A stretch of DNA of 64,000 nt from Octopus vulgaris (Eukaryota): assembly GCA_951406725.2 (NCBI GenBank), contig OX597814.1:142910001-142974000 (forward strand), in the 5' to 3' direction. Within the stretch, counting starts at the first letter, position 1; each line of letters starts with the position of its first letter. The notes beneath the pieces are model-generated. The model was not told the origin of the DNA, did no database searches, and saw only the letters and a list, made by a program, of their open reading frames with translations. The position numbers and the translations under genes were made by a program. This document shows, one piece after another, positions 14,517-51,770 of this stretch.

Positions 14517-14526
14517 AGCAAGCTTC

Positions 14527-19044: not shown

Positions 19045-19054
19045 ATCAAGCTTC

Positions 19055-29561: not shown

Positions 29562-29599
29562 TACTTACCTTTATATCAGTGGTTCGGTTTTTTCTTTTT

Positions 29600-31339: not shown

Positions 31340-32758
31340 TCACTTACCTGTCCTTTGTTTTTCATAGTCACTTGAATGTTCTTTGTCAATACGAATAAAT
31401 TCCATATCCATTCTTACTCCGAAATACTCATCCATATTTTCCACGAATTCATCGCTCATTCTTATATCTTTCACCTCCCAATTCTCCCTTTCACACCTCC
31501 CCATAAACTCACCTATGTTCTTCTTTTCAATCACAGCATACCTAGTCTCTCCAACATCATACCATTTATACTCTTCCATTAGACTTTTAACTTCTTTCTG
31601 TTCAGTCATAGTACAAATGTACGGCCTGGGTTCGATTTCAATCTCTTGTGTGTGTGTATTCTTTTTTTTCCTTTGTTTTCTTGTTGGGGGGGAGCGGGTG
31701 GGTTCAATGTCTGCATGGATAGGGTGGGACTCAGAGGGTGTGGGTGGTTTTGGGGTAGATTGGAGTTCCATATTATTTTCTTTTTTTCCACGTATTCTTC
31801 TCTTCCTCTTACTTCCAGCTTCCTTCCATTTCTGTGTATTCTCTTCCTCTGTTTCCTTCTCCTCTGGTTTCTGCTTCTCTCTCTCTGGTTCGGAATCCAT
31901 TTCTTTCCGTGGGGGAGGGCAGAAGGCTCTTATGTGACCCCTCAGGCCACACTTGTAACAACGTGGAGCCCTGCCCTCCACCCACACTCTCATGATCACG
32001 TCTCCCAGTCTGATGCTTTCCGTCAGGTCCACCAGTACCTCGGTCTCTGCCTGTACGTTCAGCTCCACCGTTACGCCTCTCCAGCCCTCGGACTTAACCG
32101 AGGCATGGAGAATATCCACTTCGTCCTCGTGGCCGCTGATCACAGCCGCCACAATCCATTCTGCCTCCACGTTTGGTGGCACTCCCTCCACCCTTATTCG
32201 TGTAATCCTCCTGTTTAAATACGTAGGTAATAGGGTTACCTTTTCTGACTTCACCGCCTTCGCCGCCATCTTCCTCGCTGCAGACTCAGTTTTGAAATGC
32301 ACAACTACGGTACCGTACTTGGATCCTCGAGTCAGAAAATTTATTTCCTCCTCAGTTCTTCGCAGGGCCTCCTCTATCCATTCCATGGTTACAACTTCTA
32401 CCCTCTTCCTTTCGTTTGCGAACACCCTGTAAATAATGGTCCTCTTATCATACCATTCCTTTCTCCTGGGTGTCGGTGATAGTTCCACCTCACCGCTTTC
32501 CTTTTTCATGTATTTCTGGTAACTTGGCAACTTGGCCATGTCTACCCCTTTCTCTTCCGCCTTCTTGGTTACACCGGCATAGGTATAACCCAGCTTCTCT
32601 TCCAAATTCCTTGCTGCCATTTCTAGCTCTTTCTCAGACGTAGGCAGGTCTGATAAAGACTCGAAAATTCCAGCCTTTTCTTCCATCAGCTTCATTGCAA
32701 TTGCCTGTTCCAGTTCCTCATCTGTCGTGGACAAGTCTGTTAGAGACTCATAGTCCAT
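31340..32758 (-). CDS. ORF1/gag-like protein, family A unit 1 (472 aa, intact)
   Basis: Acidic N-terminus, TYAGVT, RRM-like core, CYKCGLRGHIRAFC. Confidence 0.88.
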   Translation of the reverse strand: MDYESLTDLSTTDEELEQAIAMKLMEEKAGIFESLSDLPTSEKELEMAARNLEEKLGYTYAGVTKKAEEKGVDMAKLPSYQKYMKKESGEVELSPTPRRKEWYDKRTIIYRVFANERKRVEVVTMEWIEEALRRTEEEINFLTRGSKYGTVVVHFKTESAARKMAAKAVKSEKVTLLPTYLNRRITRIRVEGVPPNVEAEWIVAAVISGHEDEVDILHASVKSEGWRGVTVELNVQAETEVLVDLTESIRLGDVIMRVWVEGRAPRCYKCGLRGHIRAFCPPPRKEMDSEPEREKQKPEEKETEEENTQKWKEAGSKRKRRIRGKKENNMELQSTPKPPTPSESHPIHADIEPTRSPPTRKQRKKKNTHTQEIEIEPRPYICTMTEQKEVKSLMEEYKWYDVGETRYAVIEKKNIGEFMGRCERENWEVKDIRMSDEFVENMDEYFGVRMDMEFIRIDKEHSSDYEKQRTGK

Positions 32759-33073
32759 TTCCTTCTGTCTGACAGACCGAGAACGGCCGCCAAAATAGAA
32801 AAAGTGTAACGCGCTGAACGAGCGAAACGCGAAACCGCGTCAACGCCGTTCAGAACCTCCACAACAACAACAACGCTTCTTGTTCTTTTTTACCGAATTT
32901 CAGGAGCCGAAAAAAACACGTATTTCTTTATTACCCACTAAGGGGCTACGAAGAATGGCGGACATAACAAAACATGGGGACATAGAACATTATAATTAAA
33001 CTATATGAACATGAAGTGTTAAACGAAAAAAATGATAAAATGAAAGCGATACCAACGGCCCCGTCCGTCAGCA

Positions 33074-34492
33074 TCACTTACCTGTCCTTTGTTTTTCATA
33101 GTCACTTGAATGTTCTTTGCCAATACGAATAAATTCCATATCCATTCTTACTCCGAAATACTCATTCATATTTTCCACGAATTCATCGCTCATTCTTATA
33201 TCTTTCACCTCCCAATTCTCCCTTTCACACCTCCCCATAAACTCACCTATGTTCTTTTTTTCAATCACAGCATACCTAGTCTCTCCAACATCATACCGTT
33301 TATACTCTTCCATTAGACTTTTAACTTCCCTCTGTTCAGTCATAGTACAAATGTACGGCCTGGGTTCGATTTCAATCTCTTGTGTGTGTGTATTCTTTTT
33401 TTTCTTTTGTTTTCTTGTTGGGGGGGAGCGGGTGGGTTCAATGTCTGCATGGATAGGGTGGGACTCAGAGGGTGTGGGAGGTTTTGGGGTAGATTGGAGT
33501 TCCATATTATTTTCTTTTTTTCCACATATTCTTCTCTTCCTCTTACTTCCAGCTTCCTTCCATTTCTGTGTATTCTCTTCCTCTGTTTCCTTCTCCTCTG
33601 GTTTCTGCTTCTCTCTCTCTGGTTCGGGATCCATTTCTTTCCTTGGGGGAGGGCAGAAGGCTCTTATGTGACCCCTCAGGCCACACTTGTAACAACGTGG
33701 AGCCCTGCCCTCCACCCACACTCTCATGATCACTTCTCCCAGTCTGATGCTTTCCGTCAGGTCCACCAGTACCTCGGTCTCTGCCTGTACGTTCAGCTCC
33801 ACTGTTACGCCTCTCCAGCCCTCGGACTTAACCGAGGCATGGAGAATATCCACTTCGTCCTCGTGGCCGCTGATCACAGCCGCCACAATCCATTCTGCCT
33901 CCACGTTTGGTGGCACTCCCTCCACCCTTATTCGTGTAATCCTCCTGTTTAAATACGTAGGTAACAGTGTTACCTTTTCCGACTTCACCGCCTTCGCTGC
34001 CATCTTCCTCGCTGCAGATTCACTTTTAAAGTGCACAACTACGGTCCCGTACTTGGATCCTCGAGTCAGAAAATTTATTTCCTCCTCAGTTCTTCGCAGG
34101 GCCTCCTCTATCCATTCCATGGATACAACTTCTACCCTCTTCCTTTCGTTTGCGCACACCCTGTAAACAATGGTCCTCTTATCATACCATTCTTTTCTCC
34201 TGGGTGTCGGTGATAGTTCCACCTCACCGCTTTCCCCTTTCATGTATTTCTGGTAACTTGGCAACTTGGCCATGTCGACCCCTTTCTCTTCCGCCTTCTT
34301 GGTTACACCGGCATAGGTATAACTCAGCTTGTCTTCCAATTTCCTTGCTGCCATTTCTAGCTCCTTCTCAGACATAGGCAAGTCTGATAAAGACTCAAAA
34401 ACTCCAGCGTTTTCCTCCATCAGCTTCACTGCAATTGCCTGTTCCAGTTCCTCATCCGTCGTGGACAAGTCTGTTAGAGACTCATAGTCCAT
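33074..34492 (-). CDS. ORF1 family A unit 2 (472 aa, intact)
   Basis: Near-identical to unit 1. Confidence 0.88.
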   Translation of the reverse strand: MDYESLTDLSTTDEELEQAIAVKLMEENAGVFESLSDLPMSEKELEMAARKLEDKLSYTYAGVTKKAEEKGVDMAKLPSYQKYMKGESGEVELSPTPRRKEWYDKRTIVYRVCANERKRVEVVSMEWIEEALRRTEEEINFLTRGSKYGTVVVHFKSESAARKMAAKAVKSEKVTLLPTYLNRRITRIRVEGVPPNVEAEWIVAAVISGHEDEVDILHASVKSEGWRGVTVELNVQAETEVLVDLTESIRLGEVIMRVWVEGRAPRCYKCGLRGHIRAFCPPPRKEMDPEPEREKQKPEEKETEEENTQKWKEAGSKRKRRICGKKENNMELQSTPKPPTPSESHPIHADIEPTRSPPTRKQKKKKNTHTQEIEIEPRPYICTMTEQREVKSLMEEYKRYDVGETRYAVIEKKNIGEFMGRCERENWEVKDIRMSDEFVENMNEYFGVRMDMEFIRIGKEHSSDYEKQRTGK

Positions 34493-34825
34493 TTCCTTCT
34501 GTCTGACAGACCGAAAACGGCCGCCAAAACAGAAAAAGTGTAACGCGCTGAACGAGCGAAACGCGAAACCGCGTCAACGCCGTTCAGAATTTCCACAACA
34601 ACAACAACGCTTTTTGTTCTTTTTTACCGAATTTTCAGGAGCCGAAAAAAAACACGGAGCCGAAAAAAACGTATTTCTTTATTACCCACTAAGGGGCTAC
34701 GAAGAGTGGCCGGACATCACAAAACATGGGGACATAGAACATTATAATTAAACTATATGAACATGAAGTGTTAAACGAAAAAAATGATAAAATGAAAGCG
34801 ATACCAACGGCCCCGTCCGTCAGCA

Positions 34826-36245
34826 TCACTTACCTGTCCTTTGTTTTTCATAGTCACTTGAATGTTCTTTGCCAATACGAATAAATTCCATATCCATTCT
34901 TACTCCGAAATACTCATTCATATTTTCCACGAATTCATCGCTCATTCTTATATCTTTCACCTCCCAATTCTCCCTTTCACACCTCCCCATAAACTCACCT
35001 ATGTTCTTTTTTTCAATCACAGCATACCTAGTCTCTCCAACATCATACCGTTTATACTCTTCCATTAGACTTTTAACTTCCCTCTGTTCAGTCATAGTAC
35101 AAATGTACGGCCTGGGTTCGATTTCAATCTCTTGTGTGTGTGTATTCTTTTTTTTCTTTTGTTTTCTTGTTGGGGGGGGAGCGGGTGGGTTCAATGTCTG
35201 CATGGATAGGGTGGGACTCAGAGGGTGTGGGAGGTTTTGGGGTAGATTGGAGTTCCATATTATTTTCTTTTTTTCCACATATTCTTCTCTTCCTCTTACT
35301 TCCAGCTTCCTTCCATTTCTGTGTATTCTCTTCCTCTGTTTCCTTCTCCTCTGGTTTCTGCTTCTCTCTCTCTGGTTCGGGATCCATTTCTTTCCCTGGG
35401 GGAGGGCAGAAGGCTCTTATGTGACCCCTCAGGCCACACTTGTAACAACGTGGAGCCCTGCCCTCCACCCACACTCTCATGATCACTTCTCCCAGTCTGA
35501 TGCTTTCCGTCAGGTCCACCAGTACCTCGGTCTCTGCCTGTACGTTCAGCTCCACTGTTACGCCTCTCCAGCCCTCGGACTTAACCGAGGCATGGAGAAT
35601 ATCCACTTCGTCCTCGTGGCCGCTGATCACAGCCGCCACAATCCATTCTGCCTCCACGTTTGGTGGCACTCCCTCCACCCTTATTCGTGTAATCCTCCTG
35701 TTTAAATACGTAGGTAACAGTGTTACCTTTTCCGACTTCACCGCCTTCGCTGCCATCTTCCTCGCTACAGATTCACTTTTAAAGTGCACAACTACGGTCC
35801 CGTACTTGGATCCTCGAGTCAGAAAATTTATTTCCTCCTCAGTTCTTCGCAGGGCCTCCTCTATCCATTCCATGGTTACAACTTCTACCCTCTTCCTTTC
35901 GTTTGCGAACACCCTGTAAACAATGGTCCTCTTATCATACCATTCTTTTCTCCTGGGTGTCGGTGATAGTTCCACCTCACCGCTTTCCTTTTTCATGTAT
36001 TTCTGGTAACTTGGCAACTTGGCCATGTCGACCCCTTTCTCTTCCGCCTTCTTGGTTACACCGGCATAGGTATAACCCAGCTTCTGATCCATTTTCCTCA
36101 CTGCTATTTCTAGCTCCTCCTCAGATGTAGACAAGTCTGATAAAGACTCGAAAACTCCAGCCTTTTCCTCCATCAGCTTCACTGCAATTGCCTGTTCCAG
36201 TTCCTCATCCGTCGTGGACAAGTCTGTTAGAGACTCATAGTCCAT
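34826..36245 (-). pseudogene. ORF1 family A unit 3, 1-nt frameshift in a G run
   Basis: Extra G at about 35172-35179; may be a sequencing error. Confidence 0.8.
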
Positions 36246-36594
36246 TTCCTTCTGTCTGACAGACCGAAAACGGCCGCCAAAACAGAAAAAGTGTAACGCG
36301 CTGAACGAGCGAAACGCGAAACCGCGTCAACGCCGTTCAGAATTTCCACAACAACAACAACGCTTTTTGTTCTTTTTTACCGAATTTTCAGGAGCCGAAA
36401 AAAAAAAAAACACAGAGCCGAAAAAAAACGTGATTTTTTATTACCCACAAGGGGCCAACGAAGAGGGGGACATTACAAGACATGGGGACATGGAACATCA
36501 CAATTACATATATATGAGCAAAATGGAATATGAAAAATGATATATGAGAGTGATACCGACGGCCCCATCCGCCAGCATCACTTGTCTGTCCTTC

Positions 36595-37921
36595 TTCACC
36601 CATTTCAATTAGTATTCCTGTTTCACCTATCACAACATTCGTTTTTCTTTTAGCCCTCTCTATCCATTCATCTTTCATTTCACTGACTTCCAACACACAC
36701 CCTCTTCCTCTAACCTTGTCGCCAATATACCCGTATCATCACTATCCACAGCCGTGTAGCTCCAATCTTCGTGTTCGTACCACTTGGTTAACACCAGTTT
36801 TTTAACGTTTTGTATGTCTTTCCCATGTATAACAAATAAAAAATGGGTCTTGGGACTTTCTTTGCTCTGTGTGTCTGTTTTTATTTTTCTTGTAGGCGGG
36901 GAGTGGGTGGAATTACTGTTTGCAGGGGAAGGATGGGACTCCAAGGGTATGGGTGGTGTCGGGGTGGGTTGGGGCTTCGCACAGTTTTTCTTTTTCCTTC
37001 TTTTTCTCTTTGTTCCCGCTTCTTTCCACTCTTGTTGCATCTCCTCTTCTTCTGTCGTTTCCTTCTCTGTTTGTTTCTGTTTATTTTCTTCCTCTCCCGA
37101 GGCTTCCTCAACGCTTTCCTTTTCTTTTTCCTTTGGTGGGGGAGGGCAGTAGGCTCTTATGTGACCCCTTTGGCCACACTTGTAGCACCTGGGCGCCCTA
37201 CCCTCCACCCACACTCTCATAATAATATTTCCAGTCTTTATGCTGTCCGTAATCTCTCTATAACATCCGCCTCCGTTTGAATGTTCATAACCAGTGTGGC
37301 ACCTCTCACGCCTTCATACTTCATACTGGCGTGGAGGATGTCCACCTTATCCTCATTTCCTTTTATAACCGCAGCCGTTATTACTTCGCCCTCTAGGTGT
37401 GGAGGTATTCCCTCCACCCTAATTCTAGTTGTCCGCCTATTCAGATACGAGGGTAACAAGTAAATCTTTTCTGTACTCACCACCTTGGCTGCTACATTCC
37501 TGGCTGCTTTTTCACTTTTAAATTGCACCGTTATGGTTCCGTATTGTAATCCTTTCGTCATGTACACAATTTCCTCTCCCGTCTGCTTAAGAGCCTCTTC
37601 AATTGCTTCCATGTTAATTACTTCCATCTTTCTACCTCCATTCATAAATACTTTATATTTAATGGTTCTACGATGGAACCAGTCTCCGCACCCTACTGGA
37701 TGCAGCAGCTCAACTTCACCGTTCTCGTCCTCCTTCACAAATTCCTGGAGGCCCGCCAACTTAGCCAAGTCTATCTCTCTTTCCGTTGACTTCTTCGTTA
37801 CACCTGCGTAGGTGCCTTCCATCTTTTTCACCGCCAACTCCTCCTCAGATGTCGATACTTCCGTCGAAATTTCAGAGTAAATTCTCCCTTCCATCTCCTC
37901 CGCTTGATGGAGGCGGCTCAT
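36595..37921 (-). pseudogene. ORF1 family B unit 1, frameshifted
   Basis: ATG (MSRLHQ) at 37921; small indels near 37255 and in the 3' part. Confidence 0.8.
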
Positions 37922-38267
37922 AGTCGCCTCCGGCCGAGAAACGGCCTCCCGAACCGAAAAAGTGTAACGCGCAGAACCAGTGAGACGCGAAACCGCATTA
38001 ACTATGTTCAAAATTTTACACCAACAACCATTCACTTTTTGTTCTTTTTTCTTTTTACCGAATTTCACAGAGAGCAAAAAACCACAGAGCCGAAAAAACC
38101 ACGTGATTTTTTATTACCCACAAGGGGCCAACGAAGAGGGGGACATTACAAGACATGGGGACATGGAACATCACAATTACATATATATGAGCAAAATGGA
38201 ATATGAAAATGATATATGAGAGCGATACCGACGGCCCCATCCGCCAGCATCACTTATCTGTCCTTCT

Positions 38268-39596
38268 TCACCCATTTTCAATTAGTATTCCTGTTTTAAC
38301 CATCACAACATTCGTTTTTCTTTTAGCCCTCTCTATCCATTCATCTTTCATTTCCACTGTCTTCCAACACACACCCTCTTCCTCTAACCTTGTCGCCAAT
38401 ATACCCGTATCATCACCATCCACAGCCGTGTAGCTCCAATCTTCGTGTTCGTACCACTTGGTTAACACCAGTTTTTTAACGTTTTGTACGTCTCTCCCAT
38501 GTATAACAAATAAAAAATGGGTCTTGGGACTTTCTTTGCTCTGTGTGTCTGTTTTTATTCTTCTTGTAGGCGGGGAGTGGGTGGAATTACTGTTTGCATG
38601 GGAAGGATGGGACTCCAAGGGTATGGGTGGTGTCGGGGTGGGTTGGGGCTTCGCACAGTTTTTCTTTTTCCTTCTTTTTCTCTTTGTTCCCGCTTCTTTC
38701 CACTCTTGTTGCATCTCCTCTTCTTCTGTCGTTTCCTTCTCTGTTTGTTTCTGTTTATTTTCTTCCTCTCCCGAGGCTTCCTCAACGCTTTCCTTTTCTT
38801 TTTCCTTTGGTGGGGGAGGGCAGTAGGCTCTTATGTGACCCCTTTGGCCACACTTGTAGCACCTGGGCGCCCTACCCTCCACCCACACTCTCATAATAAT
38901 ATTTCCAGTCTTTATGCTGTCCGTAATCTTCTCTATAACATCCGCCTCCGTTTGAATGTTCATAACCAGTGTGGCACCTCTCACGCCTTCATACTTCATA
39001 CTGGCGTGGAGGATGTCCACCTTATCCTCATTTCCTTTTATAACCGCAGCCGTTATTACTTCGCCCTCTAGGTGTGGAGGTATTCCCTCCACCCTAATTC
39101 TAGTTGTCCGCCTATTCAGATACGAGGGTAACAAGTAAATCTTTTCTGTACTCACCACCTTGGCTGCTACATTCCTGGCTGCTTTTTCACTTTTAAATTG
39201 CACCGTTATGGTTCCGTATTGTAATCCTTTCGTCATGTACACAATTTCCTCTCCCGTCTGCTTAAGAGCCTCTTCAATTGCTTCCATGTTAATTACTTCC
39301 ATCTTTCTACCTCCATTCATAAATACTTTATATTTAATGGTTCTACGATGGAACCAGTCTCCGCACCCTACTGGATGCAGCAGCTCAACTTCACCGTTCT
39401 CGTCCTCCTTCACAAATTCCTGGAGGCCCGCCAACTTAGCCAAGTCTATCTCTCTTTCCGTTGACTTCTTCGTTACACCTGCGTAGGTGCCTTCCATCTT
39501 TTTCACCGCCAACTCCTCCTCAGATGTCGATACTTCCGTCGAAATTTCAGAGTAAATTCTCCCTTCCATCTCCTCCGCTTGATGGAGGCGGCTCAT
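38268..39596 (-). CDS. ORF1 family B unit 2 (442 aa from MSRLHQ)
   Basis: CYKCGQRGHIRAYC; the upstream extension in the ORF track runs through the neighbouring unit's UTR. Confidence 0.85.
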   Translation of the reverse strand: MSRLHQAEEMEGRIYSEISTEVSTSEEELAVKKMEGTYAGVTKKSTEREIDLAKLAGLQEFVKEDENGEVELLHPVGCGDWFHRRTIKYKVFMNGGRKMEVINMEAIEEALKQTGEEIVYMTKGLQYGTITVQFKSEKAARNVAAKVVSTEKIYLLPSYLNRRTTRIRVEGIPPHLEGEVITAAVIKGNEDKVDILHASMKYEGVRGATLVMNIQTEADVIEKITDSIKTGNIIMRVWVEGRAPRCYKCGQRGHIRAYCPPPPKEKEKESVEEASGEEENKQKQTEKETTEEEEMQQEWKEAGTKRKRRKKKNCAKPQPTPTPPIPLESHPSHANSNSTHSPPTRRIKTDTQSKESPKTHFLFVIHGRDVQNVKKLVLTKWYEHEDWSYTAVDGDDTGILATRLEEEGVCWKTVEMKDEWIERAKRKTNVVMVKTGILIENG

Positions 39597-39942
39597 AGTC
39601 GCCTCCGGCCGAGAAACGGCCTCCCGAACCGAAAAAGTGTAACGCGCAGAACCAGTGAGACGCGAAACCGCATTAACTATGTTCAAAATTTTACACCAAC
39701 AACCATTCACTTTTTGTTCTTTTTTCTTTTTACCGAATTTCACAGAGAGCAAAAAACACAGAGCCGAAAAAACCACGTGATTTTTTATTACCCACAAGGG
39801 GCCAACGAAGAGGGGGACATTACAAGACATGGGGACATGGAACATCACAATTACATATATATGAGCAAAATGGAATATGAAAAATGATATATGAGAGCGA
39901 TACCGACGGCCCCATCCGCCAGCATCACTTATCTGTCCTTCT

Positions 39943-41271
39943 TCACCCATTTTCAATTAGTATTCCTGTTTCACCTATCACAACATTCGTTTTTCTTTTA
40001 GCCCTCTCTATCCATTCATCTTTCATTTTCACTGACTTCCAATACACACCCTCTTCCTCTAACCTTGTCGCCAATATACCCGTATCATCACTATCCACAG
40101 CCGTGTAGCTCCAATCTTCGTGTTCGTACCACTTGGTTAACACCAGTTTTTTAACGTTTTGTATGTCTTTCCCATGTATAACAAATAAAAAATGGGTCTT
40201 GGGACTTTCTTTGCTCTGTGTGTCTGTTTTTATTTTTCTTGTAGGCGGGGAGTGGGTGGAATTACTGTTTGCAGGGGAAGGATGGGACTCCAAGGGTATG
40301 GGTGGTGTCGGGGTGGGTTGGGGCTTCGCACAGTTTTTCTTTTTCCTTCTTTTTCTCTTTGTTCCCGCTTCTTTCCACTCTTGTTGCATCTCCTCTTCTT
40401 CTGTCGTTTCCTTCTCTGTTTGTTTCTGTTTATTTTCTTCCATCTCCGAGGCTTCCTCAACGCTTTCCTTTTCTTTTTCCTTTGGTGGGGGAGGGCAGTA
40501 GGCTCTTATGTGACCCCTTTGGCCACACTTGTAGCACCTGGGCGCCCTACCCTCCACCCACACTCTCATAATAATATTTCCAGTCTTTATGCTGTCCGTA
40601 ATCTTCTCTATAACATCCGCCTCCGTTTGAATGTTCATAACCAGTGTGGCACCTCTCACGCCTTCATACTTCATACTGGCGTGGAGGATGTCCACCTTAT
40701 CCTCATTTCCTTTTATAACCGCAGCCGTTATTACTTCGCCCTCTAGGTGTGGAGGTATTCCCTCCACCCTAATTCTAGTTGTCCGCCTATTCAGATACGA
40801 GGGTAACAAGTAAATCTTTTCTGTACTCACCACCTTGGCTGCTACATTCCTGGCTGCTTTTTCACTTTTAAATTGCACCGTTATGGTTCCGTATTGTAAT
40901 CCTTTCGTCATGTACACAATTTCCTCTCCCGTCTGCTTAAGAGCCTCTTCAATTGCTTCCATGTTAATTACTTCCATCTTTCTACCTCCATTCATAAATA
41001 CTTTATATTTAATGGTTCTACGATGGAACCAGTCTCCGCACCCTACTGGATGCAGCAGCTCAACTTCACCGTTCTCGTCCTCCTTCACAAATTCCTGGAG
41101 GCCCGCCAACTTAGCCAAGTCTATCTCTCTTTCCGTTGACTTCTTCGTTACACCTGCGTAGGTGCCTTCCATCTTTTTCACCGCCAACTCCTCCTCAGAT
41201 GTCGATACTTCCGTCGAAATTTCAGAGTAAATTCTCCCTTCCATCTCCTCCGCTTGATGGAGGCGGCTCAT
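39943..41271 (-). CDS. ORF1 family B unit 3 (442 aa)
   Basis: Intact copy. Confidence 0.85.
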   Translation of the reverse strand: MSRLHQAEEMEGRIYSEISTEVSTSEEELAVKKMEGTYAGVTKKSTEREIDLAKLAGLQEFVKEDENGEVELLHPVGCGDWFHRRTIKYKVFMNGGRKMEVINMEAIEEALKQTGEEIVYMTKGLQYGTITVQFKSEKAARNVAAKVVSTEKIYLLPSYLNRRTTRIRVEGIPPHLEGEVITAAVIKGNEDKVDILHASMKYEGVRGATLVMNIQTEADVIEKITDSIKTGNIIMRVWVEGRAPRCYKCGQRGHIRAYCPPPPKEKEKESVEEASEMEENKQKQTEKETTEEEEMQQEWKEAGTKRKRRKKKNCAKPQPTPTPPIPLESHPSPANSNSTHSPPTRKIKTDTQSKESPKTHFLFVIHGKDIQNVKKLVLTKWYEHEDWSYTAVDSDDTGILATRLEEEGVYWKSVKMKDEWIERAKRKTNVVIGETGILIENG

Positions 41272-41616
41272 AGTCGCCTCCGGCCGAGAAACGGCCTCCC
41301 GAACCGAAAAAGTGTAACGCGCAGAACCAGTGAGACGCGAAACCGCATTAACTATGTTCAAAATTTTACACCAACAACCATTCACTTTTTGTTCTTTTTT
41401 CTTTTTACCGAATTTCACAGAGAGCAAAAACCACAGAGCCGAAAAAACCACGTGATTTTTTATTACCCACAAGGGGCCAACGAAGAGGGGGACATTACAA
41501 GACATGGGGACATGGAACATCACAATTACATATATATGAGCAAAATGGAATATGAAAATGATATATGAGAGCGATACCGACGGCCCCATCCGCCAGCATC
41601 ACTTATCTGTCCTTCT

Positions 41617-42943
41617 TCACCCATTTTCAATTAGTATTCCTGTTTTAACCATCACAACATTCGTTTTTCTTTTAGCCCTCTCTATCCATTCATCTTTCAT
41701 TTCCACTGTCTTCCAACACACACCCTCTTCCTCTAACCTTGTCGCCAATATACCCGTATCATCACCATCCACAGCCGTGTAGCTCCAATCTTCGTGTTCG
41801 TACCACTTGGTTAACACCAGTTTTTTAACGTTTTGTACGTCTCTCCCATGTATAACAAATAAAAAATGGGTCTTGGGACTTTCTTTGCTCTGTGTGTCTG
41901 TTTTTATTCTTCTTGTAGGCGGGGAGTGGGTGGAATTACTGTTTGCATGGGAAGGATGGGACTCCAAGGGTATGGGTGGTGTCGGGGTGGGTTGGGGCTT
42001 CGCACAGTTTTTCTTTTTCCTTCTTTTTCTCTTTGTTCCCGCTTCTTTCCACTCTTGTTGCATCTCCTCTTCTTCTGTCGTTTCCTTCTCTGTTTGTTTC
42101 TGTTTATTTTCTTCCTCTCCCGAGGCTTCCTCAACGCTTTCCTTTTCTTTTTCCTTTGGTGGGGGAGGGCAGTAGGCTCTTATGTGACCCCTTTGGCCAC
42201 ACTTGTAGCACCTGGGCGCCCTACCCTCCACCCACACTCTCATAATAATATTTCCAGTCTTTATGCTGTCCGTAATCTTCTCTATAACATCCGCCTCCGT
42301 TTGAATGTTCATAACCAGTGTGGCACCTCTCACGCCTTCATACTTCATACTGGCGTGGAGGATGTCCACCTTATCCTCATTTCCTTTTATAACCGCAGCC
42401 GTTATTACTTCGCCCTCTAGGTGTGGAGGTATTCCCTCCACCCTAATTCTAGTTGTCCGCCTATTCAGATACGAGGGTAACAAGTAAATCTTTTCTGTAC
42501 TCACCACCTTGGCTGCTACATTCCTGGCTGCTTTTTCACTTTTAAATTGCACCGTTATGGTTCCGTATTGTAATCCTTTCGTCATGTACACAATTTCCTC
42601 TCCCGTCTGCTTAAGAGCCTCTTCAATTGCTTCCATGTTAATTACTTCCATCTTTCTACCTCCATTCATAAATACTTTATATTTAATGGTTCTACGATGG
42701 AACCAGTCTCCGCACCCTACTGGATGCAGCAGCTCAACTTCACCGTTCTCGTCCTCCTTCACAAATTCCTGGAGGCCCGCCAACTTAGCCAAGTCTATCT
42801 CTTTCCGTTGACTTCTTCGTTACACCTGCGTAGGTGCCTTCCATCTTTTTCACCGCCAACTCCTCCTCAGATGTCGATACTTCCGTCGAAATTTCAGAGT
42901 AAATTCTCCCTTCCATCTCCTCCGCTTGATGGAGGCGGCTCAT
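41617..42943 (-). pseudogene. ORF1 family B unit 4, 2-nt deletion in a (CT)n run
   Basis: Frameshift near 42800. Confidence 0.8.
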
Positions 42944-43289
42944 AGTCGCCTCCGGCCGAGAAACGGCCTCCCGAACCGAAAAAGTGTAACGCGCAGAACC
43001 AGTGAGACGCGAAACCGCATTAACTATGTTCAAAATTTTACACCAACAACCATTCACTTTTTGTTCTTTTTTCTTTTTACCGAATTTCACAGAGAGCAAA
43101 AACCACAGAGCCGAAAAAACCACGTGATTTTTTATTACCCACAAGGGGCCAACGAAGAGGGGGACATTACAAGACATGGGGACATGGAACATCACAATTA
43201 CATATATATGAGCAAAATGGAATATGAAAAATGATATATGAGAGCGATACCGACGGCCCCATCCGCCAGCATCACTTATCTGTCCTTCT

Positions 43290-44616
43290 TCACCCATTTT
43301 CAATTAGTATTCCTGTTTCACCTATCACAACATTCGTTTTTCTTTTAGCCCTCTCTATCCATTCATCTTTCATTTTCACTGACTTCCAACACACCCTCTT
43401 CCTCTAACCTTGTCGCCAATATACCCGTATCATCACTATCCACAGCCGTGTAGCTCCAATCTTCGTGTTCGTACCACTTGGTTAACACCAGTTTTTTAAC
43501 GTTTTGTATGTCTTTCCCATGTATAACAAATAAAAAATGGGTCTTGGGACTTTCTTTGCTCTGTGTGTCTGTTTTTATTTTTCTTGTAGGCGGGGAGTGG
43601 GTGGAATTACTGTTTGCAGGGGAAGGATGGGACTCCAAGGGTATGGGTGGTGTCGGGGTGGGTTGGGGCTTCGCACAGTTTTTCTTTTTCCTTCTTTTTC
43701 TCTTTGTTCCCGCTTCTTTCCACTCTTGTTGCATCTCCTCTTCTTCTGTCGTTTCCTTCTCTGTTTGTTTCTGTTTATTTTCTTCATCTCCCGAGGCTTC
43801 CTCAACGCTTTCCTTTTCTTTTTCCTTTGGTGGGGGAGGGCAGTAGGCTCTTATGTGACCCCTTTGGCCACACTTGTAGCACCTGGGCGCCCTACCCTCC
43901 ACCCACACTCTCATAATAATATTTCCAGTCTTTATGCTGTCCGTAATCTTCTCTATAACATCCGCCTCCGTTTGAATGTTCATAACCAGTGTGGCACCTC
44001 TCACGCCTTCATACTTCATACTGGCGTGGAGGATGTCCACCTTATCCTCATTTCCTTTTATAACCGCAGCCGTTATTACTTCGCCCTCTAGGTGTGGAGG
44101 TATTCCCTCCACCCTAATTCTAGTTGTCCGCCTATTCAGATACGAGGGTAACAAGTAAATCTTTTCTGTACTCACCACCTTGGCTGCTACATTCCTGGCT
44201 GCTTTTTCACTTTTAAATTGCACCGTTATGGTTCCGTATTGTAATCCTTTCGTCATGTACACAATTTCCTCTCCCGTCTGCTTAAGAGCCTCTTCAATTG
44301 CTTCCATGTTAATTACTTCCATCTTTCTACCTCCATTCATAAATACTTTATATTTAATGGTTCTACGATGGAACCAGTCTCCGCACCCTACTGGATGCAG
44401 CAGCTCAACTTCACCGTTCTCGTCCTCCTTCACAAATTCCTGGAGGCCCGCCAACTTAGCCAAGTCTATCTCTCTTTCCGTTGACTTCTTCGTTACACCT
44501 GCGTAGGTGCCTTCCATCTTTTTCACCGCCAACTCCTCCTCAGATGTCGATACTTCCGTCGAAATTTCAGAGTAAATTCTCCCTTCCATCTCCTCCGCTT
44601 GATGGAGGCGGCTCAT
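43290..44616 (-). pseudogene. ORF1 family B unit 5, late frameshift
   Basis: 2-nt loss in an (AC)n run near 43390. Confidence 0.8.
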
Positions 44617-44961
44617 AGTCGCCTCCGGCCGAGAAACGGCCTCCCGAACCGAAAAAGTGTAACGCGCAGAACCAGCGAGACGCGAAACCTCATCAACTAT
44701 GTTCAAAATTTTACACCAACAACCATTCACTTTTTGTTCTTTTTTCTTTTTACCGAATTTCACAGAGAGCAAAAAACACAGAGCCGAAAAAACCACGTGA
44801 TTTTTTATTACCCACAAGGGGCCAACGAAGAGGGGGACATTACAAGACATGGGGACATGGAACATCACAATTACATATATATGAGCAAAATGGAATATGA
44901 AAATGATATATGAGAGCGATACCGACGGCCCCATCCGCCAGCATCACTTATCTGTCCTTCT

Positions 44962-46290
44962 TCACCCATTTTCAATTAGTATTCCTGTTTCACCTATCAC
45001 AACATTCGTTTTTCTTTTAGCCCTCTCTATCCATTCATCTTTCATTTTCACTGACTTCCAACACACACCCTCTTCCTCTAACCTTGTCGCCAATATACCC
45101 GTATCATCACTATCCACAGCCGTGTAGCTCCAATCTTCGTGTTCGTACCACTTGGTTAACACCAGTTTTTTAACGTTTTGTATGTCTTTCCCTTGTATAA
45201 CACATAAAAAATGGGTCTTGGGACTTTCTTTGCTCTGTGTGTCTGTTTTTGTTTTTCTTGTAGGCGGGGAGTGGGTGGAATCACTGTTTGCAGGGGAAGG
45301 ATGGGACTCCAAGGGTATGGGTGGTGTCGGGGTGGGTTGGGGTTTCGCACAGTTTTTCTTTTTCTTTCTCTTTCTCTTTGTTCCCACTTCTTTCCACTCT
45401 TGTTGCATCTCCTCTTCTTCTGTCGTTTCCTTCTCTGTTTGTTTCTGTTTATTTTCTTCCTCTCCTGAGGCTTCCTCAACTCTTTCCTTTTCTTTTTCCT
45501 TTGGTGGGGGAGGGCAGTAGGCTCTTATGTGACCCCTTTGGCCACACTTGTAGCACCTGGGCGCCCTACCCTCCACCCACACTCTCATAATAATATTTCC
45601 AGTTTTTATGCTGTCCGTAATCCTCTCTATAACATCCGCCTCCGCTTGAACGTTCATAACTAGTGTGGCACCTCTCACGCCTTCATACTTCATAATGGCG
45701 TGGAGGATGTCCACTTTATCTTCATTTCCTTTTATAACCGCAGCCGTTATTAATTCGCCCTCTAGGTGTGGAGGTATTCCCTCCACCCTAATTCTAGTTG
45801 TCCGCCTATTCAGATACGAGGGTAACAAGTAAATCTTTTCTGTACTCACCACCTTGGCTGCTACATTCCTGGCTGCTTTTTCGCTTTTAAATTGCACCGT
45901 TATCGTTCCGTATTGTAATCCTTTTGTCATGTACACAATTTCCTCTCCTGTCTGCTTGAGAGCCTCTTCAATTGCTTCCATGTTGATTACTTCCATCTTT
46001 CTACCTCCATTCATAAATACTTTATATTTAATGGTTCTACGATGGAACCAGTCTCCGCGCCCTACTGGATGCAGCAGCTCGACTTCACCGTTCTCGTCCT
46101 CCTTCACAAACTCCTGGAGGCCCGCCAACTTAGCCAAGTCTATCTCTCTTTCCGTTGACTTCTTCGTTACACCTGCGTAGGTGCCTTCCATCTTTTTCAC
46201 CGCCAACTCCTCCTCAGATGTCGATACTTCCGTCGAAATTTCAGAGTAAATTCTCCCTTCCATCTCCTCCGCTTGATGGAGGCGGCTCAT
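44962..46290 (-). CDS. ORF1 family B unit 6 (442 aa, diverged variant)
   Basis: Intact; several private substitutions. Confidence 0.85.
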   Translation of the reverse strand: MSRLHQAEEMEGRIYSEISTEVSTSEEELAVKKMEGTYAGVTKKSTEREIDLAKLAGLQEFVKEDENGEVELLHPVGRGDWFHRRTIKYKVFMNGGRKMEVINMEAIEEALKQTGEEIVYMTKGLQYGTITVQFKSEKAARNVAAKVVSTEKIYLLPSYLNRRTTRIRVEGIPPHLEGELITAAVIKGNEDKVDILHAIMKYEGVRGATLVMNVQAEADVIERITDSIKTGNIIMRVWVEGRAPRCYKCGQRGHIRAYCPPPPKEKEKERVEEASGEEENKQKQTEKETTEEEEMQQEWKEVGTKRKRKKKKNCAKPQPTPTPPIPLESHPSPANSDSTHSPPTRKTKTDTQSKESPKTHFLCVIQGKDIQNVKKLVLTKWYEHEDWSYTAVDSDDTGILATRLEEEGVCWKSVKMKDEWIERAKRKTNVVIGETGILIENG

Positions 46291-46812
46291 AGTCGCCTCC
46301 GGCCGAGAAACGGCCTCCCGAACCGAAAAAGTGTAACGCGCAGAACCAGTGAGACGCGAAACCGCATCAACTATGTTCAAAATTTTACAACAACAACCAT
46401 TCACTTTTTGTTCTTTTTTCTTTTTACCGAATTCCACAGAGAGCAAAAAACACAGAGCCGAAAAAAACACGATTTTTTTTTTTTTTTTTTTTTTTATTAC
46501 CCACAAGGGGCCACGAAGAGGGGGACATTACAAGACGGGACATGGGGTACATAAAGTAAAAATAAAATATGAAGTAAAAGATGAATTTATATGTAATGAG
46601 ATGGAACGGCTTACGAACCCCCAACTCGCAGTTCCGTTTAAAATACAATTATACATTTCATATATTCCAGTTCAAAATACAATTTTACAGTTACATATAT
46701 TCCAGTTCACAGTACAATAATTTTACAATTTTACATGTTAACATTACATATATTCCTGTTCAAAAACACAACTTTACATCAAATAATTTTACAAGTAACA
46801 ATTCTAATTCTT

Positions 46813-48145
46813 TTACATTAGACACTCGTCCGTCATATAATCCAATAGGTCCGTTTGATCTATTACATCTGGTAATTTATCATACCGTACATAATGCATT
46901 ATATGCATAGCATGATATATCTTTTTTAATTTTGTGTATGTCTCCTTGTCTATAATGACGCCTTTTACATCTTCACCATACAGTTTTGGGTTCACCTTCA
47001 CCCTGACCAACCCTTTCTTACCTACAAGTCTCTTTTCCACTTCTGTATTCTTGATATACATCACAACTGCCTTCAAGTTTTTTCCTGTAGGCCTTCTTCC
47101 ATATTTACACGATTCCAATTGTTCGTTCACTCTTGTCTCCCATTCTTGTTCAAACTCTGTCCTTGGTCGCTCTCTCACCTTTTCTTTTACTTCCTGTTCT
47201 TTTTTCTCTTCTCTCTCTTCTGCTATCTTGCTTTTTTGATTTTTTCTTTTTTATATCTTTCGGTGGTGATTCCACCCTTGATCTCTTCTTGTCTTCTGTT
47301 TTTTCCTCTTCTGCACTTGCTCGTTCTTCCTCATTTAACTGCTCCTCCATTTGTGTTTCCTCCGCTTTCGCTTCCTCCACACACGCTTCTTTACACTCCT
47401 CTATCACAACCTCTGGTGCTTTTGTTTTTTCTCGCGGGCACACATCCTTCATGTGGCCCCTCGATTTACAGTTATAGCAAATTGGGGGTCTTCCCTCTAC
47501 CACAACTCGGAGCCGTGTTTCGTCAGGGTAGACCAACTCCTCCGGGATGTTGTACAGGTCTCGCACGGTTATGTGTGCCAGAACCTGCACCGTATATCCC
47601 CACCACTTCACCTCTGCTGACTTCTCCACCTTCAGTACCTCCACATCATCCTTGCAGTTAAACAGCACTGCTGCCAGCAACCTTTCCATATTAAATTCGG
47701 GTGAGATTCTATTGATTCTCATCCTCACTGCTCTCCTTCCGCAGTAACTTGGTAGCAAAGTCCACTTATCCGATTTCAAAATTCTTGTAGCGTTCTTTTT
47801 TGCCTCCTCTTCTGTTTTAAAATACACCACTACCGTGGCATACTTCCTTCCTCTTTTAAAAAATGCTGGTTCACCCTCAATTTCCTTCAGACACCTTTCC
47901 ACTTCTTCCATTTCCGCTACTTCAATCTTCTTCGACTCCACGCACCACGTCCTGTACGTTATAGTACGCTTCTCTGCACTGCTTTCCTCCTCCTCGGACG
48001 GTGTGACTATCACACAGTCACCCTCCCTCTTTAAACTGTCGAAATACTTCTGTAAAGTCTTCTGTTCGACCATCACCTCCTCCATTTCCAGTTCACCGGC
48101 AACCAGGCCTCTGCCTGCCGCTCGCGCGTAAGTCTGCTCTTGCAT
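46813..48145 (-). pseudogene. ORF1 family C, one frameshift in an A-rich tract
   Basis: TYARAA, RGRKYATVVVYF, CYNCKSRGHMKDVC; the unit has a true poly(A) tail (T run at 46473-46495). Confidence 0.85.
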
Positions 48146-48436
48146 TTTCAAGAAAAAATTATTCCACGTCCTCCAACGAACTCGAACTCACAACCTCTTT
48201 ACTCGAAATAAACACACCAGAATAAACACACCAGAATAACTCAAAAAAAACACGGGAGCCGAAAAAAACACGTGATTTTTTATTACCCACAAGGGGCCAA
48301 CGAAGAGGGGGACATTACAAGACATGGGGACATGGAACATCACAATTACATATATATGAGCAAAATGGAATATGAAAATGATATATGAGAGCGATACCGA
48401 CGGCCCCATCCGCCAGCATCACTTATCTGTCCTTCT

Positions 48437-49765
48437 TCACCCATTTTCAATTAGTATTCCTGTTTTAACCATCACAACATTCGTTTTTCTTTTAGCCCTC
48501 TCTATCCATTCATCTTTCATTTCCACTGTCTTCCAACACACACCCTCTTCCTCTAACCTTGTCGCCAATATACCCGTATCATCACCATCCACAGCCGTGT
48601 AGCTCCAATCTTCGTGTTCGTACCACTTGGTTAACACCAGTTTTTTAACGTTTTGTACGTCTCTCCCATGTATAACAAATAAAAAATGGGTCTTGGGACT
48701 TTCTTTGCTCTGTGTGTCTGTTTTTATTCTTCTTGTAGGCGGGGAGTGGGTGGAATTACTGTTTGCATGGGAAGGATGGGACTCCAAGGGTATGGGTGGT
48801 GTCGGGGTGGGTTGGGGCTTCGCACAGTTTTTCTTTTTCCTTCTTTTTCTCTTTGTTCCCGCTTCTTTCCACTCTTGTTGCATCTCCTCTTCTTCTGTCG
48901 TTTCCTTCTCTGTTTGTTTCTGTTTATTTTCTTCCTCTCCCGAGGCTTCCTCAACGCTTTCCTTTTCTTTTTCCTTTGGTGGGGGAGGGCAGTAGGCTCT
49001 TATGTGACCCCTTTGGCCACACTTGTAGCACCTGGGCGCCCTACCCTCCACCCACACTCTCATAATAATATTTCCAGTCTTTATGCTGTCCGTAATCTTC
49101 TCTATAACATCCGCCTCCGTTTGAACGTTCATAACTAGTGTGGCACCTCTCACGCCTTCATACTTCATAATGGCGTGGAGGATGTCCACTTTATCTTCAT
49201 TTCCTTTTATAACCGCAGCCGTTATTAATTCGCCCTCTAGGTGTGGAGGTATTCCCTCCACCCTAATTCTAGTTGTCCGCCTATTCAGATACGAGGGTAA
49301 CAAGTAAATCTTTTCTGTACTCACCACCTTGGCTGCTACATTCCTGGCTGCTTTTTCGCTTTTAAATTGCACCGTTATCGTTCCGTATTGTAATTCTTTT
49401 GTCATGTACACAATTTCCTCTCCTGTCTGCTTGAGAGCCTCTTCAATTGCTTCCATGTTGATTACTTCCATCTTTCTACCTCCATTCATAAATACTTTAT
49501 ATTTAATGGTTCTACGATGGAACCAGTCTCCGCACCCTACTGGATGCAGCAGCTCAACTTCACCGTTCTCGTCCTCCTTCACAAATTCCTGGAGGCCCGC
49601 CAACTTAGCCAAGTCTATCTCTCTTTCCGTTGACTTCTTCGTTACACCTGCGTAGGTGCCTTCCATCTTTTTCACCGCCAACTCCTCCTCAGATGTCGAT
49701 ACTTCCGTCGAAATTTCAGAGTAAATTCTCCCTTCCATCTCCTCCGCTTGATGGAGGCGGCTCAT
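48437..49765 (-). CDS. ORF1 family B unit 7 (442 aa)
   Basis: Intact; mosaic of variants. Confidence 0.85.
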   Translation of the reverse strand: MSRLHQAEEMEGRIYSEISTEVSTSEEELAVKKMEGTYAGVTKKSTEREIDLAKLAGLQEFVKEDENGEVELLHPVGCGDWFHRRTIKYKVFMNGGRKMEVINMEAIEEALKQTGEEIVYMTKELQYGTITVQFKSEKAARNVAAKVVSTEKIYLLPSYLNRRTTRIRVEGIPPHLEGELITAAVIKGNEDKVDILHAIMKYEGVRGATLVMNVQTEADVIEKITDSIKTGNIIMRVWVEGRAPRCYKCGQRGHIRAYCPPPPKEKEKESVEEASGEEENKQKQTEKETTEEEEMQQEWKEAGTKRKRRKKKNCAKPQPTPTPPIPLESHPSHANSNSTHSPPTRRIKTDTQSKESPKTHFLFVIHGRDVQNVKKLVLTKWYEHEDWSYTAVDGDDTGILATRLEEEGVCWKTVEMKDEWIERAKRKTNVVMVKTGILIENG

Positions 49766-50095
49766 AGTCGCCTCCGGCCGAGAAACGGCCTCCCGAACCG
49801 AAAAAGTGTAACGCGCAGAACCAGTGAGACGCGAAACCTCATCAACTATGTTCAAAATTTTACACCAACAACCATTCACTTTTTGTTCTTTTTTCTTTTT
49901 ACCGAATTTCACAGAGAGCAAAAAACACAGAGCCGAAAAAAACACGTGATTTTTTATTACCCACAAGGGGCCAACGAAGAGGGGGACATTACAAAACATG
50001 GGGACATAGAACATTATAATTAAACTTTATGAACATGAATTGTTAAACGAAAAATGATAAAATGAAAGTGATACCAACGGCCCCGTCCGTCAGCA

Positions 50096-51511
50096 TCACT
50101 TACCTGTCCTTTGTTTTTCATAGTCACTTGAATGTTCTTTGTCAATACGAATAAATTCCATATCCATTCTTACTCCGAAATACTCATCCATATTTTCCAC
50201 GAATTCATCGCTCATTCTTATATCTTTCACCTCCCAATTCTCCCTTTCACACCTCCCCATAAACTCACCTATGTTCTTCTTTTCCATCACAGCATACCTA
50301 GTCTCTCCAACATCATACCATTTATACTCTTCCATTAGACTTTTAACTTCTTTCTGTTCAGTCATAGTACAAATGTACGGCCTGGGTTCGATTTCAATCT
50401 CTTGTGTATGTGTATTCTTTTTTTTTCTTTTGTTTTCTTGTTGGGGGGAGCGGGTGGGTTCAATGTCTGCATGGATAGGGTGGGACTCAGAGGGTGTGGG
50501 TGGTTTTGGGGTAGATTGGAGTTCCATATTATTTTCTTTTCCATGAATTCTTCTCTTCCTCTTACTTCCAGCTTCCTTCCATTTCTGTGTATTCTCTTCC
50601 TCTGTTTCCTTCTCCTCTGGTTTCTGCTTCTCTCTCTCTGGTTCGGAATCCGTTTCTTTCCCTGGGGGAGGGCAGAAGGCTCTTATGTGACCCCTCAGGC
50701 CACACTTGTAACAACGTGGAGCCCTGCCCTCCACCCACACTCTCATGATCACTTCTCCCAGTCTGATGCTTTCCGTCAGGTCCACCAGTACCTCGGTCTC
50801 TGCCTGTACGTTCAGCTCCACTGTTACGCCTCTCCAGCCCTCGGACTTAACCGAGGCATGGAGAATATCCACTTCGTCCTCGTGGCCGCTGATCACAGCC
50901 GCCACAATCCATTCTGCCTCCACGTTTGGTGGCACTCCCTCCACCCTTATTCGTGTAATCCTCCTGTTTAAATACGTAGGTAACAGTGTTACCTTTTCCG
51001 ACTTCACCGCCTTCGCTGCCATCTTCCTCGCTGCAGATTCACTTTTAAAGTGCACAACTACGGTCCCGTACTTGGATCCTCGAGTCAGAAAATTTATTTC
51101 CTCCTCAGTTCTTCGCAGGGCTTCCTCTATCCATTCCATGGATACAACTTCTACCCTCTTCCTTTCGTTTGCGCACACCCTGTAAACAATGGTCCTCTTA
51201 TCATACCATTCTTTTCTCCTGGGTGTCGGTGATAGTTCCACCTCACCGCTTTCCTTTTTCATGTATTTCTGGTAACTTGGCAACTTGGCCATGTCGACCC
51301 CTTTCTCTTCCGCCTTCTTGGTTACACCGGCATAGGTATAACTCAGCTTGTCTTCCAATTTCCTTGCTGCCATTTCTAGCTCCTTCTCAGACATAGGCAA
51401 GTCTGATAAAGACTCAAAAACTCCAGCCTTTTCCTCCATCAGCTTCACTGCAATTGCCTGTTCCAGTTCCTCATCTGTCGTGGACAAGTCTGTTAGAGAC
51501 TCATAGTCCAT
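50096..51511 (-). CDS. ORF1 family A unit 4 (471 aa)
   Basis: Open frame; homologous to A1. Confidence 0.87.
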   Translation of the reverse strand: MDYESLTDLSTTDEELEQAIAVKLMEEKAGVFESLSDLPMSEKELEMAARKLEDKLSYTYAGVTKKAEEKGVDMAKLPSYQKYMKKESGEVELSPTPRRKEWYDKRTIVYRVCANERKRVEVVSMEWIEEALRRTEEEINFLTRGSKYGTVVVHFKSESAARKMAAKAVKSEKVTLLPTYLNRRITRIRVEGVPPNVEAEWIVAAVISGHEDEVDILHASVKSEGWRGVTVELNVQAETEVLVDLTESIRLGEVIMRVWVEGRAPRCYKCGLRGHIRAFCPPPGKETDSEPEREKQKPEEKETEEENTQKWKEAGSKRKRRIHGKENNMELQSTPKPPTPSESHPIHADIEPTRSPQQENKRKKKNTHTQEIEIEPRPYICTMTEQKEVKSLMEEYKWYDVGETRYAVMEKKNIGEFMGRCERENWEVKDIRMSDEFVENMDEYFGVRMDMEFIRIDKEHSSDYEKQRTGK

Positions 51512-51675
51512 CTCCTTCTGTCTGACAGACCGAAAACGGCCGCCAAAACAGAAAAAGTGTAACGCGCTGAACGAGCGAAACGCGAAACCGCGTCAACGCC
51601 GTTCAGAATTTCCACAACAACAACAACGCTTTTTGTTCTTTTTTACCGAATTTTCAGGAGCCGAAAAAAACACGT

Positions 51676-51770
51676 CCCTTTTTCTCTACATTCTATACTT
51701 TATAGACAATAGTCTTTTCTTTAATTTAATTTTTTATTATCCATCTGGACTATTCCATTTCTGCACGCGA
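51676..51770 (-). pseudogene. Old ORF1 relic (family G), part upstream of the array insertion
   Basis: Minus strand translates KEKTIVYKV*NVEKKG; compare EKKTITYKVYLLEGKK in family D. Confidence 0.6.

Follow-up and report, generated by a model that had tools for sequence, protein, structure and literature searches.

Why should every unit of a mixed array of retrotransposon-like elements begin with the first 17 nucleotides of only one of its families? The question is raised by a stretch of Octopus vulgaris DNA (assembly GCA_951406725.2, contig OX597814.1, positions 142,910,001 to 142,974,000), whose full 64,000 nucleotides we call the window and number from 1. Its minus strand holds, at 31186-51674, an array of 12 full-length units of 1.67-1.80 kb, each with a single open reading frame (ORF) of the ORF1 type and no ORF2: four of family A, seven of family B and one of family C, none of them 5'-truncated (0/12). 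Read along the minus strand, from high to low coordinate, the order is A1, B1, C1, B2-B7, A2, A3, A4 and then element D, a long interspersed nuclear element (LINE); the unit names count in this direction, opposite to the numbering of the A units in a preliminary description of this DNA. Alignment of the tails shows one common 3' tail type in A, B, C and D. In the following we argue that the segment at the unit starts is probably a target-site duplication (TSD) of the family A 5' end, with amplification at the DNA level added to it. The coordinates are collected in Table 1.

The junction segment at the unit starts

The motif CGTGNTTTTTTCGGCTC occurs exactly ten times in the window, all on the minus strand and every one at a unit start, while shuffled sequences contain it 0.04 times on average and none of 100 shuffles reached ten. 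Counting the shortened forms at 36415-36430 (16 nt) and 34657-34671 (15 nt), the segment stands at all 12 A, B and C starts in the form CGTG(T/G)T6CGGCTC, i.e. as the 17-mer CGTG(T/G)TTTTTTCGGCTC, or as a 15-16-nt variant. The preliminary description had placed it after the tails, which holds for 11 of the 13 tails but not for those of A4 (31186) and D (~26036), which are followed by CATGG. Its account of how the segment is arranged was confirmed at each coordinate: single in the outer A units at 51674 (A1) and 32920 (A4), doubled in the two inner ones at 36392-36430 (A2) and 34639-34671 (A3), ahead of TGTG(G)TTTTTTGCTCTC in seven of seven B units, and ahead of CCGTGTTTTTTTTGAG in C1 (48272). 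Triple copies are absent from the 12 units. Instead of the 17-20 bp first proposed, the best register is 17 nt counted from CGTG, the A before it being part of the tail. The palindrome CACGTG, to which attention had been drawn, is indeed present, but at 7 of 12 junctions only, and its CA is supplied by the B-type tail end, outside the repeated segment, so that it is incidental; we rejected an E-box function, because the palindrome forms across the tail boundary and only at those seven junctions. All 14 junctions have C-R-T-G/T either right at the start of the unit or no more than three bases from where the tail ends (10 CGTG, 2 CGTT, 2 CATG). A further joint at 49209-49950 (21-nt side) was discarded as a likely look-alike of the tail. 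Rfam gave no family at gathering score in the window and only sub-threshold matches at 46300-52400, none on the junction motif, and ARAGORN found no tRNA; the segment could thus not be recognised as the target of a small RNA. Scanning metagenomes for the junction pattern gave no match.

Whose sequence is it? The segments before B1, C1 and B2 are identical to the A 5' end at 17 of 17 positions, while the own first 17 nt of B and C agree with it at 10/17 and 8/17. In the alignment, the counterpart of the A 5' end is the second segment of B and not the first, and the B 5' untranslated region (UTR) beyond its first 17 nt matches A at 114 of 138 columns. By these comparisons the segment is the 5' end sequence of family A. 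A solo ORF1-only sibling, F, lies elsewhere in the window; its own 5' end matches A at 22/26 and is the only one of 7612 40-nt windows outside the array with such a score. F carries the homologous motif once, behind an unrelated TSD. Because the solo element starts in this way, the 17-nt motif is an ancestral own 5' end of the lineage, old and terminal, which fits the reading of the extra copy as a TSD. It is probably a start-site element.

A foreign, undiverged copy of fixed length at each junction is what a TSD yields, and for this reason we consider duplication of the A 5' end upon insertion, combined with DNA-level amplification, the probable origin of the segment. The preliminary description had named, as an alternative, a HeT-A-like tag, in which transcription from the 3' end of an upstream unit leaves a short tag on each new copy. 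The units are indeed ORF1-only and head-to-tail as in HeT-A, and sequencing run X8, which is RNA by guess only and was not taken as expression evidence, covers all 30 bins. A HeT-A 5' tag consists of 3'-end sequence with oligo(A). The octopus segment is, in contrast, 5'-end sequence without 3' UTR or oligo(A), its doubled forms contain no tail bases, and the array sits inside an interrupted internal repeat, so that such a tag is highly improbable here.

Table 1. Positions of the array, its flanks and related features in the window (forward-strand numbering)
Feature	Positions	Strand	Details
Unit A1, ORF1-only	49947..51674	-	ORF 51511-50096, 471 aa; 5' motif once; final ~45 nt B-type tail
Unit B1, ORF1-only	48273..49946	-	ORF 49765-48437, 442 aa; 17-nt lead, then diverged own 5' end
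Unit C1, ORF1-only	46472..48272	-	ORF 48145-47150, 331 aa; A23 tail; exact 17-nt direct repeats 48256-48272 and 46455-46471 on its flanks
Unit B2	44798..46471	-	run-wide majority allele at four sites where six other B units differ
Units B3-B7	36431..44797	-	starts 44797, 43124, 41452, 39777, 38103; all with G variant of lead; 0-8 clean differences; alternating 3' halves
Unit A2	34672..36430	-	5' motif doubled (16-nt lead and own copy with long T run); frameshifted ORF
Unit A3	32921..34671	-	5' motif doubled (15-nt lead and own copy)
Unit A4	31186..32920	-	5' motif once; tail then CATGG, the start of D; putative founder A copy
Element D	26036..31185 (end ~26036)	-	broken full-length two-ORF LINE; ORF1 from 30961; ORF2 29561-26283 (APE, RT, zf-RVT); stops and frameshifts; tail type as A/B/C
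Outermost 17-nt segment copy	51658..51674	-	GGGA and left host flank before it
Left half of interrupted host repeat	51679..51760	-	reads like decayed ORF1 (...EKTIVYKV...); loose end here in 27 contigs
Right half of interrupted host repeat	25747..26038	-	decayed ORF1, profile positions 119-197; first ~20 nt match loose end continuing left flank in other copies
Solo ORF1-only sibling F	3062-5240, within 3046..5256	+	inside tRNA-type SINE; perfect 16-bp TSD 3046-3061 = 5241-5256
Older chain of ORF1/LINE pieces	17375..21044	-	same SINE as F; 14-16-nt SINE segment at 3/3 junctions (21022, 19056, 17406)
Second older chain	12250..16020	-	same SINE segment at 3/3 junctions: 15997, 14528, 12274 (degenerate)

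Probable insertion at the segment and at the host site

The best case of an insertion is C1. It ends in a tail of 23 A, its 3' junction lacks the usual final CA of the tail, and it has exact 17-nt repeats on both sides; on its letters, it looks like a clean insertion. C1 is not unrelated to the other units, as had been supposed: its ORF is 33-39% identical to the ORF1 of A and B, and the final ~55 nt of the unit agree with the B tail at 93%.

The sibling lineage, to which F (about 29% ORF1 identity) belongs, provides an internal control for the TSD reading, since the window holds both its 16-bp TSD, in a short interspersed nuclear element (SINE), and TSD-linked chains. The two older chains are made up of pieces of ORF1 and ORF2 that lie within a single SINE site, both with the SINE head to the left and the SINE body to the right, and are related to each other by an old duplication (11106-12092 resembles 16371-17199, and 15398-16348 resembles 20428-21385). 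F itself has a long 5' region with an apparent intron (donor near 3140, pyrimidine tract near 3650). The SINE that holds F reads CACATGG three bases beyond the end of the F-type TSD (plus strand, 2524-2535 and 5257-5268), which could be a candidate for the ancestral site of the CRTG-cutting lineage. A second SINE forms dimers and trimers (minus strand 7500-7900, plus strand 9500-10000), in which a body from GGTATTTCG to TTAATCC and a ~60-nt LINE tail of the A/B/C/D type are followed by GGTATTTCG again; it begins with its own target and is in this sense a second self-targeting-like unit.

C1 and the sibling TSDs also bear on another explanation, in which the masters of B and C each gained the first 17 nt of A once, by a template jump or an old insertion, and the head-to-tail order arose by end-to-end template jumping without a duplication per insertion. 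Template jumps that join the heads of one subfamily to another SINE subfamily are described in section 17 of PMC4494074, as excerpted. Such an inherited extension agrees with the lack of a TSD at the junction of A4 with D and at the outer left end, with the full length of 12 out of 12 units, and with A1, whose A body carries a B tail as after template switching. It requires, though, separate captures of the same 17-nt length in B, in C and twice in A; the leads of B1, C1 and B2 show no divergence from A; no triple copies exist; the 3' junction of C1, shifted by one base and preceded by A23, exactly matches its 5' lead; and the TSDs of the sibling lineage are equally long. We therefore regard the inherited extension as unlikely, although it keeps more weight than the other alternatives.

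How did the array start? At the left flank (51679), 27 contigs of run X1 read on into a sequence that agrees in 18 of 21 columns with the flank downstream of D, a score that 8 of 20000 shuffles reached at the place named beforehand, and both array flanks read like halves of one decayed ORF1. From these two observations it would follow that the whole 25.6-kb block fills one site of an older repeat, with ~10 nt lost, GGG added and no duplication. More than 12 kb of the window lie past the 5' end of the array. The GGG(A) ahead of the A1 5' end (51674-51678) is absent from the host consensus and may be untemplated or cap-derived. D begins with CATGG, CATGG also comes after D, and A4 adjoins the CATGG of D; in the simplest order that we infer, D came first, A4 followed at the nick used by D, and the later copies entered at the CGTG of A itself. 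The earlier proposal that the segment is a TSD of the A 5' end is thus the best fit for the 17/17 leads of B1, C1 and B2 and for the repeats around C1, in company with the sibling TSDs, but not for the founders, which hit a CATGG that is not their own and are accompanied by the ~10-nt loss.

We propose the following course. A borrowed ORF2 protein of the L1/Tx1 type would nick just before the CGTG of an existing copy and again ~17 nt further. D would have inserted at the CATGG site of the host repeat, and the first A copy (A4) at the CATGG that starts D, with ~10 nt of the host lost. Because A itself starts with CGTG and a T run, its first bases would have become the next target; each later A, B or C insertion would be placed in front and duplicate 17 nt, leaving the older copy whole and still targetable. 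A new A copy would show the segment once, if its cDNA anneals to the identical overhang, or else twice. Finally, unequal exchange or conversion would have acted on the B run as DNA, lengthening it and mixing the sequences of its units. Self-targeting may in this scheme be a by-product of a short CRTG-type preference that met a 5' end resembling it.

Evidence against insertion alone, and likely duplication at the DNA level

A number of observations weigh against the TSD reading or narrow its reach. Independent insertion is well shown for C1 only, and the target preference rests on one array in one 64-kb window, in which no intact ORF2 of this lineage was found. A1 shows one segment copy where two are expected, so that an extra annealing step is needed, and its tail is of the B type. 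The outer array ends show the ~10-nt loss and no TSD, and the match of the loose end to the flank after D is not significant over the whole window (14 of 30 shuffles reach the score somewhere), with a consensus agreement of 0.63. After the SINE-derived unit, whose tail is of the same type, comes GGTATTTCG and not CRTG. In run X8, a different T-rich sequence, with CTGCTC at its end, comes after the tail in at least two contigs, and a similar T-rich one stands before an A start in at least two, which means that related, non-identical targets exist. B4 equals B6 at 39 of 39 clean variable sites, the eight B-type tails have equal length without poly(A) variation, and at 4 of the 17 listed B1 sites the allele dominant in the sequencing runs is carried by B2 alone while the other six B units share the alternative, with the reservation that one of the four sites stands near one half in X1, that the depth of contigs is an unreliable measure and that the animals are different ones. 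Many junctions may accordingly be DNA-level copies and not separate insertions: the tails adjoin the A-type segment in 11 of 13 cases, and the number of independent insertions among them may be as low as four or five.

The B units were compared after masking of the indel-adjacent columns, which kept 39 of 64 variable columns and masked 25. B3, B5 and B7 differ by 2-5 clean sites and alternate with B4 and B6; five units, three of one type and two of the other, would alternate strictly by chance in 1 of 10 cases, and the pattern is suggestive only. Two blocks of shared sites conflict with each other (10 sites shared by B1 and B2, 5 sites by B1, B4 and B6). The A units are mosaics as well, and the four differ by 15-44 clean substitutions. 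On account of the identity of B4 and B6, the conflicting blocks, the equal tails and the alleles shared across the locus, B3-B7 likely come largely from DNA-level duplication or from one local master. The notion that the array grew by insertion is thus supported by the repeats that flank C1 but cannot be the whole account, given B4, B6 and the mosaic units.

Could such a satellite-like process suffice on its own? In that case a few founders were amplified by unequal crossing-over, gene conversion over tail and junction homogenised the junctions, and no ongoing self-targeting took place. The B4-B6 identity and its alternation with B3/B5/B7, the two incompatible site blocks, the A mosaics, the invariant tails and the alleles common to the locus all speak for it, and the tail switch of A1 and the B-like start of the second segment of A2 could bound a converted block. 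It accounts for the B run, but not for where the additional A-type segment ahead of B and C came from; it leaves the single-copy C1, with its poly(A) and flanking repeats, unexplained; and the 15-44 clean substitutions between A units are unlike a fresh duplication. While the process itself belongs to the best explanation, its sufficiency appears rather improbable to us. Still less credible is that the number and order of the near-identical B units are partly a product of assembly. B3-B7 differ from each other mainly by indels and by changes at homopolymer edges (25 of 64 variable columns were masked), and no contig of the sequencing runs spans the stretch. Against this, collapse or expansion alone could not yield families of three kinds, A units that differ from one another and junction variants peculiar to single units, and 30 of 30 bins are covered in four of four runs.

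Partner LINE, known systems and copies elsewhere

We return to the TSD reading with amplification, which calls for a partner that supplies the endonuclease. The ORF2 of D matches the profiles PF03372, PF00078 and PF13966 (APE, reverse transcriptase (RT) and zf-RVT). Its closest solved structure is L1 ORF2p (E 2.5e-40; R2 at 1e-12). The best relatives reach 38-41% identity and bear no family names, one fungal match at 26% is labelled Transposon TX1, and a metagenome scan with the C-terminal part of the protein gave no match. The D ORF1 begins with about five 24-nt repeats that encode SPKKKEAV (minus strand, 30795-30911). ORF identities are 44-47% between A and B, 33-39% between C and A/B, and 33-38% between all of these and the D ORF1. 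In the ORF1 tree A and B are sisters (100/99), while C, D, F and the host repeat stand on long branches without a resolved placement, and for this reason we claim no order of target switches. zf-CCHC stays below the cut-off in the B and C ORFs; zf-CCHC and RNA-binding domains of the ZCCHC3 type occur in its protein-atlas neighbours (0.90-0.92), and a structure model of ORF1, itself of low confidence (pLDDT 55), finds its matches among tandem-RRM proteins (best E 9.6e-4). These data may point to tandem RRM-like folds and one CCHC knuckle in the ORF1 proteins. In the Tx1 clade, ORF1 has RRM-type folds and a CCHC knuckle. Judged by sequence, A, B and C are ORF1-only passengers of a LINE of the L1/Tx1 group, and membership of the lineage in the Tx1 clade is likely.

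The comparisons with known systems draw on excerpts of the cited papers. For the Tx1 clade, PMC4494074 (Kojima 2015) lists site-specific elements and passengers (Tx1 in Tx1D, Keno, Kibi, Koshi, crocodilian Tx1-Mar, SINEU-3) and reports tandem SINEU-3 copies that sandwich a TSD (16 nt quoted), read there as sequential insertions by the Tx1 machinery. The octopus array shares with this clade an APE-type machinery with a fixed preferred site in another repeat, tandem copies around a TSD, and non-autonomous passengers with the same preference; D has the corresponding ORF2 layout (N-terminal APE, RT, C-terminal zinc-binding region), and within the window a ~16-nt TSD in a repeat and tandem copies are seen in F, the SINE-segment chains and C1. 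The targets described for the Tx1 clade in the excerpt are, however, foreign (a DNA transposon, an snRNA (small nuclear RNA) gene, a microsatellite, an LTR (long terminal repeat) element), whereas the octopus array repeats the passengers' own conserved 5' end; moreover, unlike the Tx1 passengers described there, the octopus passengers code for protein, and three families are mixed in one 12-unit run. Tandem insertion around a TSD in Tx1-driven elements is the known part, and the aim at the lineage's own 5' end is the new one.

Like the HAL1 elements, non-autonomous LINE derivatives of repeated origin that encode only ORF1p (PMC5753468), A, B and C are ORF1-only, homologous to the ORF1 of a two-ORF LINE, and show signs of retrotransposition in the partner-shared tail and the TSD. 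HAL1 comes from mammalian L1, and the excerpt describes neither a site preference nor arrays; all 23 ORF1 relatives that we found are Octopus vulgaris models and none points to mammalian L1 descent, so A, B, C and F are an independent parallel in the octopus. LINE copies also gather in clusters in Cryptococcus, where many new Cnl1 copies insert within existing ones and form subtelomeric arrays with many 5'-truncated members (PMC9942834), and in green algae, with Zepp and the centromeric ZeppL (10.1101/2022.06.16.496473, PMC11005252). Unlike Cnl1 as described in that excerpt (PMC9942834), the octopus units are full length in 12 of 12 cases and joined in one register at the first base, so that the older copy stays whole. 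With HeT-A/TART/TAHRE (PMC5537684) the array shares the head-to-tail, mixed order and an ORF1(Gag)-only member that depends on the RT of another element. Those elements, according to the same excerpt, add to chromosome ends and, in HeT-A, use a promoter in the 3' UTR of the upstream copy (PMC5537684), while the octopus array lies inside an interrupted repeat with a junction segment of 5'-end sequence. It shows neither a 5' tag of upstream 3'-end sequence with oligo(A) nor a chromosome-end location. Zepp, for its part, reportedly inserts into Zepp.

In a search that did not extend to Repbase or subscription journals, nor to the PMC4494074 supplements or the PMC13282606 repeat library, any of which may already hold the families, the published literature gave no account of these octopus arrays or of a LINE aimed at its own 5' end. 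An excerpt of PMC13282606 counts 13 recently active L1-Tx1 families without describing their targets. We put forward, as a tentative and rather doubtful idea, that the endonuclease of an octopus LINE lineage, once aimed at a foreign repeat, now has as its target the lineage's own conserved 5'-terminal, likely promoter, motif, and that ORF1-only families, mixed and intact, form arrays whose growth is autocatalytic and takes place at many sites inside chromosomes. If true, each insertion would rebuild the start of the older copy via the TSD and add a new target, a self-made safe harbour like that of HeT-A/TART but off the telomeres. If genome-wide, a LINE lineage would target its own first 17 bases, nesting would be harmless to older copies, and the arrays would feed their own growth. 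With a sibling lineage aiming at a SINE in the same window, target switching of APE endonucleases would become directly comparable, and spurious O. vulgaris gene models built of repeated ORF1 exons would be accounted for. If not genome-wide, the array would be an ordinary Tx1-type TSD chain with tandem duplication.

What do the copies elsewhere indicate? Most of the 23 relatives, all of them gene models, are 75-99% identical, and 11 of the 23 hold two or three copies of A's last exon. One of these, P0156, has exons that match A1, a B unit and A2/A3 in order; it is probably this locus and was dropped from the count of other arrays. The remaining 10 models splice two or three A last exons and sit on contigs with nine distinct lengths (41-216 Mb). 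This suggests same-strand A clusters on many chromosomes, with the limit that gene models show neither adjacency nor junctions. The A ORF ends in a splice-donor-like GGACAG/GTAAGT (minus strand, 50096-50400), and the 23 gene models join this exon by splicing either with host genes or with the A copy that comes next; many of these A-exon models are likely annotation artefacts or cases of exonisation. Although we did not take summed contig depth as copy number, the depth of A relative to B (bins 50022-51613) was far higher in X1 than in X2 or X13, for which the kind of library, or A copy numbers that vary widely from animal to animal, could be responsible.

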